Positions 4,859 to 11,277 of a stretch of DNA of 64,000 nucleotides are shown one piece after another. The stretch lies in sequence record MW394390.1, one strand, 5' to 3'. Source of the DNA: Klebsiella phage vB_KpM_FBKp34. The notes under the pieces are model-generated. The model searched no databases, was not told where the DNA came from, and worked only from the letters and a program-made list of their open reading frames with translations. The position numbers and the translations under genes were made by a program. Position 1 is the first letter of the stretch. The number at the start of each line of letters is the position of its first letter.

Positions 4859-5396
4859 TCAAGAGTTCCTCAATGTGACTAACACGATGTTCATAATAAT
4901 CCCCAAGAGAAAAGTAAGCTGCTGGGCTATGCAAAACATCCCATTCAAGCATCATCTCAATAGTTTTGTACATCTTAAGATACTTTTGCATTCTTGCAAA
5001 GTCTTTTTCTCGCAAACCTTTTAAACGACGAATATCTGTGTTGTGACGAAGATCAGCCAGCTTCACACGACACGTATCAGAAGAATACAAAATGCCTGAA
5101 AGGTACTCATTATGAGATTGACCTGCTTTCTTGGTTAAACGATTGATGCCATCCACTACCCGCTCTGAAAAACCGTAGGCAGCAAGTTCGATAAAAGTCA
5201 CATCACAATCTTCAACCAAATCATGACCGACAGCAATGCAGTTAAGTTCATCATCATCCGATTTGAGATAGTGCATAACCTTTAGTACATGCAAAATGTA
5301 AGGTCTTCCACCTTTATCAAATTGATCTTTATGGCCTTCTGCTGCTAACTTAATCATAAGGGAGAGTTGTTGTGCTGGAGTAAGTTCAAATTTCAT
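4842..5396 (-). CDS. HD-domain small alarmone hydrolase (SpoT/MESH1-like (p)ppGpp hydrolase)
   Basis: 184 aa; H...HD...ED motif (EGHKDQFDKGGRPYILHVLKV...GHDLVEDCDVTFIEL), FGERVVDGINRLTK and KLADLRHNTD match the Rel/SpoT hydrolase HD domain. Confidence 0.7.
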   Translation of the reverse strand: MKFELTPAQQLSLMIKLAAEGHKDQFDKGGRPYILHVLKVMHYLKSDDDELNCIAVGHDLVEDCDVTFIELAAYGFSERVVDGINRLTKKAGQSHNEYLSGILYSSDTCRVKLADLRHNTDIRRLKGLREKDFARMQKYLKMYKTIEMMLEWDVLHSPAAYFSLGDYYEHRVSHIEELLNDKGN

Positions 5397-5426
5397 TTGT
5401 ATGTCCTTCTTGGTTAAGATAACTCC

Positions 5427-5454
5427 ATCTTACTCTAAAAATATTTCATGTCAA
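5427..5454 (-). promoter_or_regulatory. sigma70-like promoter (TTGACA-N16-TAAGAT) for the minus-strand early operon
   Basis: reverse complement of 5427-5454 reads TTGACATGAAATATTTTTAGAGTAAGAT, directly upstream of the gene starting at 5396. Confidence 0.45.
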
Positions 5455-5457
5455 GGG

Positions 5458-5485
5458 TTGACTTTCTTTTTCGGTTTGATAAGAT
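5458..5485 (+). promoter_or_regulatory. sigma70-like promoter (TTGACT-N16-TAAGAT) for the plus-strand early/middle block
   Basis: TTGACT at 5458-5463 and TAAGAT at 5480-5485, followed by RBS GAGAGGAG and ATG at 5516; back-to-back with the minus-strand promoter. Confidence 0.45.
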
Positions 5486-5515
5486 TGTTGCATACCAAAC
5501 GAGAGGAGAAAAAAG

Positions 5516-5878
5516 ATGCCTATTTACCATGTAACTACTGAAGGTGATGATGAAGGTCGTAGCACTCGCGACCTGGGATATGTTGAAGCAAATAGCCCTG
5601 AACATGCTGTCAAATACTTGAAAAGTATTGGTATCCATGAATATTATGATTACTATGTGGACGTAGCACTGAATGTTGTTCGTAAAGCCGCCCCAGAAGA
5701 AACTCTGAATATGTGGGTAGCCGAACTATCCCTGCGGCCTTACAGCAAAGATTCTTACAAAGGTAAGGTAGTTGAAAACACAGAAGTACGTAAGCGTTGT
5801 CAACAAACTGTTCGAGAAGCAATGAAACGTGCAGGGCTTTCTTATGAAGACGTAGTTAACTTTGGTAAAGGAGAATAA
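5516..5878 (+). CDS. hypothetical protein
   Basis: 120-aa ORF with strong RBS; first gene of the plus-strand block. Confidence 0.55.
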   Translation: MPIYHVTTEGDDEGRSTRDLGYVEANSPEHAVKYLKSIGIHEYYDYYVDVALNVVRKAAPEETLNMWVAELSLRPYSKDSYKGKVVENTEVRKRCQQTVREAMKRAGLSYEDVVNFGKGE

Positions 5879-5880
5879 CA

Positions 5881-6252
5881 ATGTATAACCTCACCTGGAC
5901 GCAAGCCCAAGAAGCAATGCGTGAAGGTAAACGTGTAAAAAACTGTCACTTTACTGATGATGAGTGGTTTACAATGCAGGGTTGCTCTATTATAGATGAA
6001 GCTGGATATTCAATGGAAGGTTGGTATCGTGGTGAGCCTTGGCAAGATGTTGGTTGGACAGTTATTGCTGATGAAATAGCAGAACTTACAAAAGATGTAG
6101 AGTTTGTTCTGGACTTTACTAATCTTGAAAAGTATACTCTTAAAAGTATGATAGCTACAACAACTAAAGATAGATCTGATAGTGACTATGCCACTACAAA
6201 AATCTATAAAGGTAAAGGTCATAACAAGCTCCAGAAGAGGAAGAAGAAATGA
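5881..6252 (+). CDS. hypothetical protein (basic C-terminus)
   Basis: 123-aa ORF ending KLQKRKKK. Confidence 0.5.
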   Translation: MYNLTWTQAQEAMREGKRVKNCHFTDDEWFTMQGCSIIDEAGYSMEGWYRGEPWQDVGWTVIADEIAELTKDVEFVLDFTNLEKYTLKSMIATTTKDRSDSDYATTKIYKGKGHNKLQKRKKK

Positions 6253-6477
6253 AAATATTATATATTGAAGATGTTATGTGCGAGAAATGTTATGGTAGTA
6301 TTTTCTCTGGTGGGTGTATTTGTAAATGACTATCTATCAAAACATGTTTCGTGCTATCATGCGTAAGTATATCGGAAGTAAGGGGTATGCATCCCTTGAT
6401 GGTGGAAACACTTGGTCAGAAAGTGGAACACCAGAGGAGTTGATCAAACGTCTACCTTACTATGTGGAGATTAAATA

Positions 6478-6801
6478 ATGTTTTTATATTTTATTGGAGT
6501 TTTGGTTAGTGGTCTGCTATGGTTTGGTTTAATTAAGCTTCGACAGAAAGGTTTTGGTATAAAGATGCCAAAGTCTTTTGGTGAAGATTCCTTTTTCTTA
6601 GAACCTCTGGATAATAGAAGTGTGAACTATTCTTTAGTTATGATAGGGTTACTGCTATTCTCAATTCTATGGCCTATTGCTTGGGTCTTTCTTTTTTGGT
6701 TATATCTAATGGCATATATAATCGAGTTTGTTCAGTGGTTGTGGAAGAACTCAGTAGGAAATGAGAAATTTGTCAAGAAATTTTTTGGAGTAAGCAAGTG
6801 A
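6478..6801 (+). CDS. hypothetical membrane protein
   Basis: 107 aa with three hydrophobic helices. Confidence 0.5.
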   Translation: MFLYFIGVLVSGLLWFGLIKLRQKGFGIKMPKSFGEDSFFLEPLDNRSVNYSLVMIGLLLFSILWPIAWVFLFWLYLMAYIIEFVQWLWKNSVGNEKFVKKFFGVSK

Positions 6802-7007
6802 CTGACTGGGTTAAAATTAAAGCTACTAAAGAAATTCCTGTAGGAAAGTGGTTAGTCTACATGGAAGATGGAGAATATGGCTATTGTGAAGTAAACAAAA
6901 CTAAAAGTGGTACAATCGCTGTTATAAACGGTCGTTTTTACTTTGACATAGCTAGTGTAGTAGCATACACTTCATTTAACCACTATGAAGGAGGTAAAAA
7001 TGTTTAG
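6798..7007 (+). CDS. hypothetical protein
   Basis: 69-aa ORF, 4-nt overlap with its neighbour. Confidence 0.4.
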   Translation: MTDWVKIKATKEIPVGKWLVYMEDGEYGYCEVNKTKSGTIAVINGRFYFDIASVVAYTSFNHYEGGKNV

Positions 7008-7341
7008 TAACACAGTTCTGGATTCATTGGGAATCTTGCTTAATGCTGGGATCGAGGTCTCAATGCATTATGATCGTGAGAAAAAATTGTGGTATGCTGA
7101 CCTTAACACTGGGGCAAAAAGTCACATGCATTTGTATGATGATGGAAAAATCATCACATTAGAAAAACGTTATAATGAAAAAGATCAATTAAATTATGAG
7201 TTTGATAATTCGATGGAAGATATCTTGAACTTTTATTGTTGTAATTTTGTATCATGTATCAAAGGACGATCTTTTGCTAATGAAAATTGGGTTGCTTTTG
7301 CAAAAGAACGAGGTTATACTGCTGTCTTCGGAATTAATTAA
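6985..7341 (+). CDS. hypothetical protein
   Basis: 118-aa ORF. Confidence 0.45.
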   Translation: MKEVKMFSNTVLDSLGILLNAGIEVSMHYDREKKLWYADLNTGAKSHMHLYDDGKIITLEKRYNEKDQLNYEFDNSMEDILNFYCCNFVSCIKGRSFANENWVAFAKERGYTAVFGIN

Positions 7342-7350
7342 GGAGACCAA

Positions 7351-7587
7351 ATGTTAAATTCATTATATGTAAAAGACTATAATGACAATGTTTATACAAA
7401 AGTTGTAGCTGTCCTTCTGATCAATAATGTACCAACCTATATCGACGCCTACGGTGAAGGATATGAAGTGGGTGTTGCACATGTTATTGATATTGATCAC
7501 ATAGTTGATCCATATTTAGGTATTGAATGGCATGATAATGGGTTAACTTTTAAAACTTATGAACGGAAATATCCAAGGGAGCTTTAA
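7351..7587 (+). CDS. hypothetical protein
   Basis: 78-aa ORF with RBS AAGGAGA. Confidence 0.45.
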   Translation: MLNSLYVKDYNDNVYTKVVAVLLINNVPTYIDAYGEGYEVGVAHVIDIDHIVDPYLGIEWHDNGLTFKTYERKYPREL

Positions 7588-7589
7588 TA

Positions 7590-8288
7590 ATGCAAGTTAA
7601 AAATTTAAAACCTTTAATCACAGAAAGTTCACATGCAGGGGATGTTTCACAAAAGATTAGTCATCCTGCATATGGACTAATTTCTGTTACACGTCCGATG
7701 GGTGGCAGAAAAGAAATGTTTGGTTCTGATTTACGTCATGACAACACTGTGACAATCCGAATATCTAATGCTATTGAAGAACGTTCATTAGGACGTTCCT
7801 GGTACTATGAGAAAGGTCAAATCATTGAATTGGATATGACTGAAGCACAGTGGGCTAAGTTTGTCTCCTCACATGGTATGTCGGGAACACCGGTTACTTT
7901 ACGATATATCCGCGAAGAAGGTCAAATTCCTTGGATTGAATCTCAGAATAGCAAAGCAGATTACTCAGAAAAAGAATTTGAACGTGTTATTAAGAACAAT
8001 ATGCAGTACGCTCAAGATGCTTTAAATGAAGTTAAAGAACTCATTGCCAAGGGTAAAGCAGGTAAAAAGGATTTAGAGAATCTTGAAAAGGTTCTTTGGC
8101 GTATTGTTGAACGTTTCCCAGATAGTGCAGCGTTTGCAGTAAGAGCTTTCAAAGAAGAAACTGAAGAAATGGTAGAAGGTGCTAAAATTGAGATTGAAGC
8201 CTCTTTATCAGCTTTGGTGCAAAATACAGGTATTGAAGCTTTAGGTATTAAAAACTGGAATAAACTTGAGGATAAATCTGATGAGTAA
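7590..8288 (+). CDS. hypothetical protein
   Basis: 232-aa ORF. Confidence 0.5.
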   Translation: MQVKNLKPLITESSHAGDVSQKISHPAYGLISVTRPMGGRKEMFGSDLRHDNTVTIRISNAIEERSLGRSWYYEKGQIIELDMTEAQWAKFVSSHGMSGTPVTLRYIREEGQIPWIESQNSKADYSEKEFERVIKNNMQYAQDALNEVKELIAKGKAGKKDLENLEKVLWRIVERFPDSAAFAVRAFKEETEEMVEGAKIEIEASLSALVQNTGIEALGIKNWNKLEDKSDE

Positions 8289-8475
8289 GATTGTAATGGA
8301 AACCATCTTTGGTTCACATTTATATGGTCTGAATACCCCTAACAGTGATACAGATTACAAAGGAATTTTTATTCCTGATGCAAAAGATATTCTCTTAGGA
8401 AAAGCTCCTAAAACAATTCAATCATCTACAGGTGATAAACACTCAAAGAATACAAAAGATGACATTGATCGCTAA
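8266..8475 (+). CDS. nucleotidyltransferase, N-terminal part (GS-x9-DxD); ends at an in-frame TAA
   Basis: FGSHLYGLNTPNSDTDYKGIF is a classic pol-beta/MNT-type NTase signature; the next ORF continues in the same frame after a single TAA. Confidence 0.5.
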   Translation: MRINLMSKIVMETIFGSHLYGLNTPNSDTDYKGIFIPDAKDILLGKAPKTIQSSTGDKHSKNTKDDIDR

Positions 8476-9237
8476 ATGTTTAGTTTGAGTAAATTCATCA
8501 GTCTTGCTTGTGAAGGTGATACAGTAGCTATCGACATGATTCATGCTGATGATAGTAAGCTCGTAACCAATTCTGAAACGTGGCAATATATTCGTGACAA
8601 TCGTCACCGTTTTTATACTAAAAAGCTGACAGGACTTTTTGGTTATGTAAGGAAACAAGCATCTAAGTATGGAATTAAAGGCTCCAGGCTTGCAGCATTA
8701 CGTGAAGTTGTAGAATATATTAAGACAATAGATGATTCTAAAAAGGTTGGTGATTTCAAAGAATATTTTCCACTCAATGAGTTTGCATATTGGATCTTTG
8801 CTACGGATAAAAATGGTGTAAATCAAATCTTTTATGAAGTTCTTGGAAGAAAGTTTCAACAAACAGTCTCAGTAAAAGAAATGAAAACATCTTTATTTAA
8901 ACTGTGGGAAGAATATGGTGATAGAGCACGTTTGGCTGAGGCTAATCAAGGTGTGGATTGGAAAGCTCTGAGCCACGCTCTTCGTGGTGGATATCAACTT
9001 ATTAACATTTATAAGCATGGTGATCTTGTTTATCCTATGGAACAAAATCCCTTGATTTTATCTGTTAAGACTGGTAACATGCCTTTCAATGAGGTTCAGG
9101 AAGAACTTGAGAAGGTTGTACAGGAAGTTGAAATTTTAGCAGAAAACTCTCATTATCCTTCTTCAGTAGATAAGGAATTTTGGGAAGATTTTCTAGAAGA
9201 GGTTTATTCAGAACATATTCTTGGAGCATATTTGTGA
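8476..9237 (+). CDS. nucleotidyltransferase, C-terminal part (same frame as 8266-8475)
   Basis: starts with ATG right after the TAA; contains VAIDMIHADD (possible third acidic residue) and a long helical domain. Confidence 0.5.
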   Translation: MFSLSKFISLACEGDTVAIDMIHADDSKLVTNSETWQYIRDNRHRFYTKKLTGLFGYVRKQASKYGIKGSRLAALREVVEYIKTIDDSKKVGDFKEYFPLNEFAYWIFATDKNGVNQIFYEVLGRKFQQTVSVKEMKTSLFKLWEEYGDRARLAEANQGVDWKALSHALRGGYQLINIYKHGDLVYPMEQNPLILSVKTGNMPFNEVQEELEKVVQEVEILAENSHYPSSVDKEFWEDFLEEVYSEHILGAYL

Positions 9238-9251
9238 CTAATGAATACCAG

Positions 9252-9515
9252 ATGCCTTACAGAATTCATGAGATTGTCTTAGTAGATGGGATAGAAGCTA
9301 CTATCCGGGATATCTATAATAAGACTGTTAGAATCAAAGGAGAAGGCACTGAAGAAGACTCTTTCATGACAGTCTGGAGTTATCGTATTCATGAAAAGCC
9401 TTGGTGGGGCCAGGATGTTCTCCCACATAGAATTGAAAAACTTAACGGCGAACTGAGATTTGAGGAAAAGACCTATGCTAAACCCACAACAAAAGCATTT
9501 CTTCCTTACGAATGA
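9252..9515 (+). CDS. hypothetical protein
   Basis: ORF 9180-9515 trimmed to the internal ATG at 9252 to avoid overlap; a GTG at 9234 is an alternative start. Confidence 0.35.
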   Translation: MPYRIHEIVLVDGIEATIRDIYNKTVRIKGEGTEEDSFMTVWSYRIHEKPWWGQDVLPHRIEKLNGELRFEEKTYAKPTTKAFLPYE

Positions 9516-9699
9516 GGATTATAGTGATACTAAAACTTTTAACCTTGAGCAGTTACTATTAGAGCAATCTAATAATAACGTAGGTGAGATGTTTGTTTTG
9601 CTGGTTACAAATTTGTTTGAAAGAAAATTGTTGACAAAAGACGATCTGGCAGATATGATGGGCATCTCCCATTCCCAATTAGAAGAGGCACCTTGGTAA
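9460..9699 (+). CDS. hypothetical protein
   Basis: 79-aa ORF. Confidence 0.4.
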   Translation: MRKRPMLNPQQKHFFLTNEDYSDTKTFNLEQLLLEQSNNNVGEMFVLLVTNLFERKLLTKDDLADMMGISHSQLEEAPW

Positions 9700-10076
9700 T
9701 GAATAAAAATAAAAAACTAATTAAAGCTTTGAACACTTTTAGAAATGAACTTATTAGAGATTTGCATTCCTTTCGAAAATGTTCGGTGAACAGGAAAAAG
9801 ATGGATCAAAGTTATTTCAGTAAAACTTGTAATAAGATTAAACTTGAAATTAAAGAAGTTGATAAGTTAATCGAAGAAGCAAAGTTACAGAAAGAAAAGA
9901 ATTTCTTCGACTTGCGCCCGCAATGTTCAAGTATTGAAAGTGGACCAGAGCCAAGCATCACGATGCTTCTTGAAGACTACTATCGGGAATACTTTCCTGA
10001 AGATTATAAGAAGATGGCAAAAGATTATTTAGATAAACTTATGGAGATGAAGGATGCAGAACAAGTTAGTCTATAA
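9693..10076 (+). CDS. hypothetical protein
   Basis: 127-aa ORF, Lys-rich. Confidence 0.45.
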   Translation: MVMNKNKKLIKALNTFRNELIRDLHSFRKCSVNRKKMDQSYFSKTCNKIKLEIKEVDKLIEEAKLQKEKNFFDLRPQCSSIESGPEPSITMLLEDYYREYFPEDYKKMAKDYLDKLMEMKDAEQVSL

Positions 10077-10090
10077 AGTTGGAGATTTGA

Positions 10091-10753
10091 TTGAAACAAA
10101 AACTTGTACATAACTATGGCATTAATGATAGTGTAGACCCTGTCTCTATAAATAGATTTGAAGATGGTAAATGGAAGCAAATTTGGCTCTGTCCGATATA
10201 TAGCCGATGGAAAGACATTCTTAGAAGATGTTATAATTTAAAACAAAAAGATCCATATTATTTTGTCTATGAAGGTTGTACTGTAAGTGAAGAGTGGAAA
10301 TACTTTTCAAATTTTAAAGCTTGGGCCATATCTAAGGATTTTGATAATTTATGCATTGATAAGGATATATTAATTAAAGGTAATAAGCTTTATAGTAAAG
10401 AGACTTGCGTTATGGTTCCGAACTATATTAACTGCCTATTAACAGATAGTAGATCTGCAAGAGGACACCTCCCACTAGGGGTAAGTCTTAAAAAGAAGAA
10501 AAAGCCTCATCATAGGGATAGGTTCCAAGCTTATTGTCATGTATCTGGTAAGATTGTTTATCTAGGTTATCATAACTCACCAGACCTTGCTCATAAACAG
10601 TGGCAAGATTATAAAATTATTGCAATCAAGGAAAGCTTACAAAAATATAAAGAATCTGCACACTTTAATAAGGTTGTTGAAACTGCCTTACTTGATAGGA
10701 TCCAAGATATAAAAGAAGATATAAGTTTAAATAGAGAGACATTAAAATTATAG
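10091..10753 (+). CDS. homing-endonuclease-like protein (HNH_3-like region + AP2 DNA-binding domain)
   Basis: 220 aa; IDKDILIKGNKLYSKETCVMVPNYIN resembles an HNH_3 core; C-terminal RFQAYCHVSGKIVYLGYHNSPDLAHKQW matches the AP2 fold; paralog of 34973-35671. Confidence 0.55.
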   Translation: MKQKLVHNYGINDSVDPVSINRFEDGKWKQIWLCPIYSRWKDILRRCYNLKQKDPYYFVYEGCTVSEEWKYFSNFKAWAISKDFDNLCIDKDILIKGNKLYSKETCVMVPNYINCLLTDSRSARGHLPLGVSLKKKKKPHHRDRFQAYCHVSGKIVYLGYHNSPDLAHKQWQDYKIIAIKESLQKYKESAHFNKVVETALLDRIQDIKEDISLNRETLKL

Positions 10754-10761
10754 GGGGTAAT

Positions 10762-11277
10762 ATGTTGAAATATAAAGTGATGGATTTGTTATTGGCTGCA
10801 AAAAGTGGAGAAGTAAATGTTATTGCACAACAATGTAACTGTTTTAATGCACGTAAACGTGGGATTGCCCCACTTTTAGATAAAGCTTTCCCGGAAGTCG
10901 CTATTGCAGATGATTCAACTATTAAAGGAGACCCTAAAAAATTTGGAGATTTCTCATATGCCCATTCTCCATTGTATAATTTAAGTATTTATAATTTATA
11001 CGGACAGTGGGGTTGGTGGAAACGTGAGGATGGAAAACCAAATACAGATTTAGATAAGCTTGAATCTTCTTTCAAAGCTATGTCTAAACAGCTAATGCTT
11101 TTTGAAAATCAGGATCTTAAAATTGGACTTCCCAAACTTGGTGCAGGTCTTGGAGGAGCAGAGTGGTCTTCTGTTGAAGATATTATCAAAAAGACATTGT
11201 GTGAAGCCGGGTACAATGTTACCATCTATGTACTTGATGAAGCTGAAATCCCTGAAAATGCCACTGTGATCAAATAA
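10762..11277 (+). CDS. macro-domain protein (ADP-ribose binding/hydrolase)
   Basis: 171 aa; VIAQQCNCFNARKRGIAPLLDKAF (macro N-terminal Gly-rich motif) and IGLPKLGAGLGGAEW (second macro motif). Confidence 0.55.
   Translation: MLKYKVMDLLLAAKSGEVNVIAQQCNCFNARKRGIAPLLDKAFPEVAIADDSTIKGDPKKFGDFSYAHSPLYNLSIYNLYGQWGWWKREDGKPNTDLDKLESSFKAMSKQLMLFENQDLKIGLPKLGAGLGGAEWSSVEDIIKKTLCEAGYNVTIYVLDEAEIPENATVIK

Follow-up and report, generated by a model that had tools for sequence, protein, structure and literature searches.

Klebsiella phage vB_KpM_FBKp34 (MW394390.1) carries a nucleotidyltransferase (NTase) gene of the RlaP/NrdC.11 family that is interrupted by a single in-frame ochre codon. In the 64,000-nucleotide stretch of this genome analyzed here (hereafter, the window), the gene extends from position 8281 to position 9237 on the plus strand (318 codons plus TGA, with one premature stop). 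With a probability of roughly 0.8, we regard the copy in FBKp34 as a very recent ochre pseudogene allele of an accessory RlaP/NrdC.11 gene. It is an ordinary gene knockout in a known accessory gene and involves no new coding mechanism. A first-pass annotation of the same DNA had listed four options for the interruption (i.e., a recent nonsense pseudogene, a sequencing error, a two-subunit arrangement, and stop codon readthrough); the first of these is retained, and the other three are disfavored by the evidence described below.

Two open reading frames form one RlaP/NrdC.11 family gene

The premature TAA (8473-8475, plus strand) is followed immediately, and in the same frame (frame 1), by an ATG at 8476, an arrangement described in the first-pass annotation and confirmed here from the sequence and the list of open reading frames (ORFs). 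The N-terminal ORF as listed spans positions 8266 to 8475 and starts with TTG, but the relatives of this gene and the GenBank record use the ATG at 8281, which, judging from these sequences, is likely to be the start of the NTase gene rather than TTG 8266. Translated from ATG 8281, the protein begins MSKIVMETIFGSHLYG, and the joined product is 318 amino acids (aa) long, as in relatives, instead of the approximately 323 aa estimated previously. The N-terminal fragment (codons 1 to 64; 8281-8472, plus strand) carries G11-S12, D23xD25, and D61/D63, and the C-terminal ORF (codons 66 to 318 plus the TGA at 9235-9237; 8476-9237, plus strand; 253 aa) carries D85, H88, and the helical domain. The NTase signature that had been recognized earlier is indeed present in the N-terminal ORF as the motif FGSHLYGLNTPNSDTDYKGIF; its spacing is F-G11-S12-x10-D23-T-D25 (i.e., GS-x10-DxD), however, and not the x9 originally given. 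With this spacing, it fits the hG[GS]-x9-13-DxD pattern of pol-beta NTases.

The joined translation has a single match to the Pfam family RlaP (PF10127; gathering score, 23 bits), which covers residues 3 to 133, spans the stop codon, and scores 51.3 bits; an intact relative, P0001, scores 51.6 bits against the same family. Taken separately, the N-terminal fragment still reaches 26.4 bits, and no Pfam family matches the C-terminal ORF. P0001 also matches phrog_388 ("nucleotidyltransferase") over its full length with an E value of 1.5e-113. A DNA similarity search returned 974 phage records, the best of which, after one close relative, were T4-like phages, whose records list the gene as nrdC.11 and annotate it as a nucleotidyltransferase. 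The NrdC.11 proteins of RB43 and RB16 are each encoded by one gene (328 aa), are approximately 65% identical to the window protein over the full length, and have Gln where the window has its stop codon. A T2-type homolog, likewise a single gene, is 50% identical to the window protein. A single RlaP match across the stop codon and the end-to-end alignment of the 318-aa relatives identify the two ORFs, beyond chance, as halves of one gene of the pol-beta NTase superfamily. The RlaP match across the stop and the fused orthologs thus bear out the earlier proposal of one pol-beta NTase gene broken by a single in-frame TAA.

The same proposal had also mentioned CD-NTase-like enzymes. The family is instead that of RlaP and T4 NrdC.11, and membership in the CD-NTases or in a defense system was rejected, as neither PADLOC nor NCBIfam gave a match. 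A sequence search of the PDB yielded chance kinase matches only.

The lesion is a single, recent C-to-T transition

A protein search identified five near relatives of 318 to 319 aa (P0001 to P0005; 99, 97, 97, 95, and 85% identity), all of them uninterrupted proteins and three of them located on phage contigs of 135 to 142 kb. The first four (P0001 to P0004; intact, 318 aa) are 95 to 99% identical to the fused window protein. Where the window has the premature TAA, the five near relatives read ...DDIDRQMFSL... or ...DDVDRQMFSL..., and P0001 through P0006 all read D-R/N-Q-M-F-S-L. Cluster listings contain approximately 17 distinct full-length sequences from this clade. In the DNA alignment, relatives L006 and L007 have CGC CAA ATG, whereas the window has CGC TAA ATG; in all, CAA stands in this context in the four relatives that were compared as DNA. 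This CAA>TAA replacement is the only disabling change in the codon alignment. One C>T transition, at position 8473, thus converted the ancestral CAA codon (Gln65) into an ochre codon.

The comparison with orthologs that the first-pass annotation had suggested therefore found the gene fused, both in the near relatives and in RB43 and RB16. Orthologs consistently encoded as two genes, the pattern named beforehand as contradicting an interrupted gene, did not appear; the orthologs are single genes. A conserved split in the T4-like records was also considered and rejected: the second feature in RB43 and RB16 is merely a neighboring gene, and the only split copy, in the T4-like phage Lychee_ER51, is broken at another site and by a frameshift.

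Pairwise comparisons of the window, L006, L007, and L008 gave ratios of nonsynonymous to synonymous substitution rates (dN/dS) of 0.06 to 0.09, indicating purifying selection on the intact gene. Compared with L006 and L007, the window has one further private change, a synonymous TTT>TTC. Since this is the only private change besides the nonsense mutation and there is no sign of decay, the inactivation appears to be very recent.

No second copy of the TAA allele was found in pattern scans of viral, metagenome, and genome collections or in look-ups of the exact products, and the exact 64-aa and 253-aa products occur only in the FBKp34 record. An allele known from a single deposited genome could reflect a sequencing or assembly error, the true codon being CAA. 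Such an error is highly improbable here. The difference is a substitution rather than a homopolymer indel, and the FBKp34 genome was read at a depth of >10,000x with short accurate reads (MGISEQ-2000, paired-end 100, SPAdes assembly; PMC8386662), a depth and accuracy that make a consensus substitution error unlikely. Furthermore, in the regions of the window that are comparable to relatives, tblastn revealed no internal stop codon in any other real gene, and the three other ORFs that had been flagged are short off-frame ORFs. Systematic in-frame stops in the window were rejected as well, as a scan for abutting segments in the same frame gave ordinary consecutive genes only. As a separate observation, the minus strand of the window (48925-45764) contains three long same-frame segments (496, 211, and 347 codons) with a single TAA between each, which may represent ordinary consecutive genes or another interrupted gene.

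The break falls within a predicted core strand of the NTase domain

Six residues (D23, D25, D61, D63, D85, and H88) show no variation across 45 aligned homologs, and the window divides them between the two ORFs. The AlphaFold2 model of P0001 (mean predicted local distance difference test score, 87) contains beta-strands at residues 3-10, 24-31, 45-49, and 62-68, beyond which it is largely helical, ending in a helix at residues 298-317. Residue 65 is located inside strand 62-68. The 64-aa fragment, which carries the GS, DxD, and D61/D63 residues, ends in the middle of this strand, and the 253-aa fragment, which carries D85/H88 and the helical domain, starts in the middle of it. In the crystal structure of the Pseudomonas enzyme PfRlaP, an N-terminal NTase domain is followed by a C-terminal helical domain, the terminal helix of which packs back on the NTase domain; in bacterial RlaP proteins, the two domains form a cleft, and three Asp residues are strictly conserved (PMC12776372). 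Because the break lies in a core beta-strand, and in light of this domain layout and the conserved Asp residues, neither of the window fragments is predicted to be a competent enzyme, each being left without a complete NTase domain.

A Foldseek search of the P0001 model against the PDB retrieved only pol-beta NTases with a helical domain (i.e., HalB, 3c18, and kanamycin NTase), with no match to PfRlaP in the PDB copy used. The best match was the NTase HalB of the Hailong defense system (9dbh/9dbj; E value, ~5e-4), ahead of kanamycin NTase. The similarity to HalB in this model-based search, at template modeling scores of 0.3 to 0.4, probably reflects the general pol-beta fold only.

Predicted products of the interrupted gene

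Translation from ATG 8281 would stop after 64 residues, and on the basis of the sequence, the 64-aa N-terminal fragment would be the only product certain to be made. The 253-aa C-terminal ORF would be translated only upon reinitiation of ribosomes at AUG 8476. Some restart is expected because the ancestral Met66 codon abuts the stop codon (UAA-AUG), and some of the terminating ribosomes would probably reinitiate there to give the 253-aa C-terminal fragment. The neighboring genes of the operon overlap the NTase gene in a similar stop/start fashion (i.e., ATG 8281 overlaps the TAA at 8286-8288 of an upstream 232-aa gene, and GTG 9234 of a downstream 93-aa gene overlaps the TGA at 9235-9237), suggesting that ribosomes routinely terminate and reinitiate in this operon. 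Translation of the 93-aa gene is predicted to be coupled to the NTase frame through this GTGA overlap. Upstream of 8476, the match to the anti-Shine-Dalgarno sequence (UGAUC, -5.8 kcal/mol) is in the weaker third of long-ORF starts, with 20% of all window ATGs being equal or better, and it lies in codons that are identical in the intact relatives. All six nearest relatives (P0001 to P0006) have Met66; given this ancestry, ATG 8476 was not created for restart, and its interpretation as a compensatory start for the C-terminal half was rejected. Restart is plausibly a by-product, not a designed feature, and would lessen polar effects on the downstream genes that are coupled in translation. Scans for internal promoters and terminators gave no more sites than were found in shuffled sequence.

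The abutting stop and start codons, together with the coupling of the neighboring operon genes by stop/start overlap, could also be taken to mean that the enzyme works in two pieces, with the 64-aa and 253-aa products of UAA-AUG reinitiation reassembling into an active NTase or with the C-terminal fragment having a separate role. Apart from the break, the two fragments show no damage, and the closest isolate, KP13-16 (see below), also retains the C-terminal 227 residues in frame. Nevertheless, none of the relatives is split at codon 65, including the approximately 17 distinct intact sequences; Met66 and the preceding codons are ancestral, and nothing around them is shaped for restart; the Shine-Dalgarno match before 8476 is weak; and the break, which is flanked by invariant acidic residues, lies within a core beta-strand. 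Recency accounts equally well for the absence of decay. We therefore consider a functional split enzyme, or a separate function of the C-terminal fragment, to be very unlikely.

Another way to retain activity would be the production of the full-length protein through suppression of the ochre codon or through its programmed readthrough. In favor of this, FBKp34 has been reported to carry 18 tRNA genes, which lie outside the window; a suppressor tRNA, however, was flagged only in a different phage (PMC8386662). The 64-kb window contains no tRNA gene, and the 19 tRNAs of KP13-16, the nearest isolate, all have sense anticodons. Moreover, TAA is the commonest stop codon in the window, terminating 53 of 90 ORFs with a length of 100 aa or more, and readthrough at TAA in general would do harm. 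In enterobacteria, both release factors (RF1 and RF2) recognize UAA, which is the least leaky of the stop codons. Codon reassignment and a suppressor tRNA were rejected as far as TAA usage, the tRNA scan of the window, and the tRNAs of KP13-16 allow this to be checked, and continued synthesis of the full-length protein is extremely unlikely.

In the recent nonsense allele that we favor, the break would leave the GS/DxD half of the active site on one polypeptide and D85/H88, together with the helical RNA-binding domain, on the other. An RlaP-type activity, the attachment of one or two nucleotides at RNA 3'-OH ends in the repair of damaged tRNA, would most likely be lost, and the phage would tolerate the lesion because the gene is dispensable on the isolation host. 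Several considerations weigh against this interpretation. Divergence is so low that decay cannot separate a recently dead gene from one working in two pieces, and both the TAA allele and the two fragments are known at the level of the consensus sequence. In addition, the addition of nucleoside monophosphates (NMPs) to RNA 3' ends and the role in tRNA repair come from two Pseudomonas RlaP enzymes described in a preprint, in which T4 NrdC.11 falls into a different sequence cluster from the Pseudomonas RlaP proteins (PMC12776372). The function of the intact phage enzyme is accordingly one that we infer by analogy.

Other damaged alleles of the NTase gene

The closest isolate, KP13-16 (OP617741.1), is 99% identical to the window from position 8551 onward and differs in the upstream segment, window positions 6448 to 8550 being replaced by an unrelated 3.1-kb segment. 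At the junction, KP13-16 has an in-frame chimera of 533 aa (L001:3086-4687, corresponding to OP617741.1 85755-87356), which consists of approximately 305 residues of a NadR-like nicotinamide mononucleotide (NMN) adenylyltransferase/ribosylnicotinamide kinase and of NTase residues 92 to 318. The NadR-like part is C-terminally truncated at profile position 291/325, and the chimera is without the catalytic N terminus of the NTase. KP13-16 also has a separate full nadR gene at 9035-10081. A third type of lesion in the clade was found in L010:2501-3456 and L011:431-1386, in which a T5>T4 homopolymer deletion, at the run corresponding to window positions 8610 to 8614, splits the NTase into ORFs of 115 aa and 118 aa; the L010 and L011 assemblies may share one sample and may thus not be independent. 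Outside this clade, the T4-like Klebsiella phage vB_KpnM_Lychee_ER51 (L003:1508-2514) has two coding sequences annotated as "nucleotidyltransferase" that are separated by a frameshift after ...TVAEMK, beyond which the C-terminal part runs on in a different frame; this frameshift could reflect either a genuine mutation or a sequencing error in a homopolymer. In T4 itself, a fragment from nrdC.11 to mobD.3 is among those lost in viable genome-reduced mutants (PMC9825161). These sequences and mutants point to an NTase gene that is expendable and repeatedly damaged.

Among the three lesions in the clade, that of KP13-16 removes the catalytic N terminus, and those of the window and of L010/L011 interrupt the NTase domain; the open C-terminal frame begins at residue 66 in the window, at residue 92 in KP13-16, and at residue 201 in L010/L011. 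It is conceivable, although improbable, that damage to the catalytic N terminus has been selected rather than merely tolerated. If so, the active enzyme or the RNA that it produces could be sensed by some Klebsiella hosts, and the lesions would represent escape mutations; alternatively, a C-terminal helical fragment made by restart could keep an RNA-binding role of its own.

Genomic context and annotation

The gene upstream of the NTase (7590-8288, plus strand) encodes a 232-aa protein of unknown function (phrog_6452) and lies outside the lesion. The gene downstream (9234-9515, plus strand) starts with GTG and encodes a 93-aa protein (phrog_16965). The gene order of the window (78-aa/232-aa/NTase/93-aa/74-aa/125-aa genes) is the same in L006 through L009. 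Upstream of the block formed by the 78-aa, 232-aa, and NTase genes (window positions ~5140 to 6800), the alignment with L005 through L009 is highly mosaic, with short, patchy matches of 71 to 97% identity and differences in small-gene content. Within approximately 1.5 kb on either side, the neighbors of the NTase gene that were compared with Pfam and PHROGs either had no Pfam match or fell into PHROGs without an assigned function, apart from the HNH endonuclease gene described below; no RNA ligase or RNA repair gene was revealed among them. T4 nrdC.11 is likewise not known to adjoin rnlA or pseT. The G+C content of the window is 36.2%, and that of the FBKp34 genome is 36.0% (PMC8386662).

A gene for a 220-aa HNH endonuclease (10091-10753, plus strand; phrog_953; E value, 1.3e-72) is located 0.85 kb downstream of the NTase gene. 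The segment from 10092 to 11110 has no counterpart in L007 through L009 and is common to the window and KP13-16; from this distribution, it looks like a mobile homing-endonuclease insertion.

In the FBKp34 record (141,376 bp), the 64-aa product corresponds exactly to QQV91959.1 ("hypothetical protein"), and the 253-aa product corresponds exactly to QQV91783.1 ("putative thioredoxin"). Several full-length homologs are also named "thioredoxin" in phage records, but Pfam gave no thioredoxin domain match in the NTase protein. The label most likely spread from the name of the T4 locus nrdC.11, nrdC being the thioredoxin gene. These two FBKp34 annotations should be corrected to a single ochre-mutated NrdC.11/RlaP NTase gene. 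The allele also provides a natural data point for the conditional dispensability of a widespread phage NTase, and FBKp34 and its relatives with the intact gene form a natural near-isogenic pair for probing NrdC.11/RlaP function.

Comparison with known systems

The closest known system is the NrdC.11 of T4-type phages, with which the window protein shares full-length homology, the same GS...DxD signature and invariant residues, and a similar length class (318 aa versus 328 to 336 aa). The window copy differs in that it resides in a Stephanstirmvirinae-like Klebsiella phage of 141 kb, not a T4-like phage, and has other neighbors. A further difference is the TAA at codon 65: of the T4-like copies examined, all but the frameshifted one of Lychee_ER51 are intact.

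The similarity to bacterial RlaP proteins (PF10127; e.g., PfRlaP and PaRlaP) comprises a Pfam score above the gathering threshold, the predicted layout of an NTase domain followed by a helical domain, and the conserved acidic residues. T4 NrdC.11 has itself been placed in the RlaP family (PMC12776372). In contrast to this overall resemblance, the Pfam match is limited to residues 3 to 133, and there is no adjoining RNA ligase gene. PfRlaP and PaRlaP of Pseudomonas are the only enzymes for which addition of one or two NMPs to an RNA 3'-OH has been demonstrated, and the phage proteins form a separate cluster (PMC12776372).

At the level of the fold, HalB (9dbh/9dbj), 3c18, and the kanamycin NTase ANT(4') belong to the same class as the window protein, with Foldseek E values of 5e-4 to 2e-2. 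The template modeling scores of 0.25 to 0.42 and the sequence identities of 6 to 13% limit this resemblance to the fold and give no sign of a shared substrate or role.

With regard to the lesion itself, the reinitiation mutants of T4 rIIB and of lacI, which are nonsense alleles with translational restart, offer the nearest parallel. In both cases, an in-frame AUG close after the premature stop codon allows for the production of a C-terminal fragment and for relief of polarity. For the window allele, in contrast to these mutants, restart is inferred from the adjacency of UAA and AUG and from a weak Shine-Dalgarno match.

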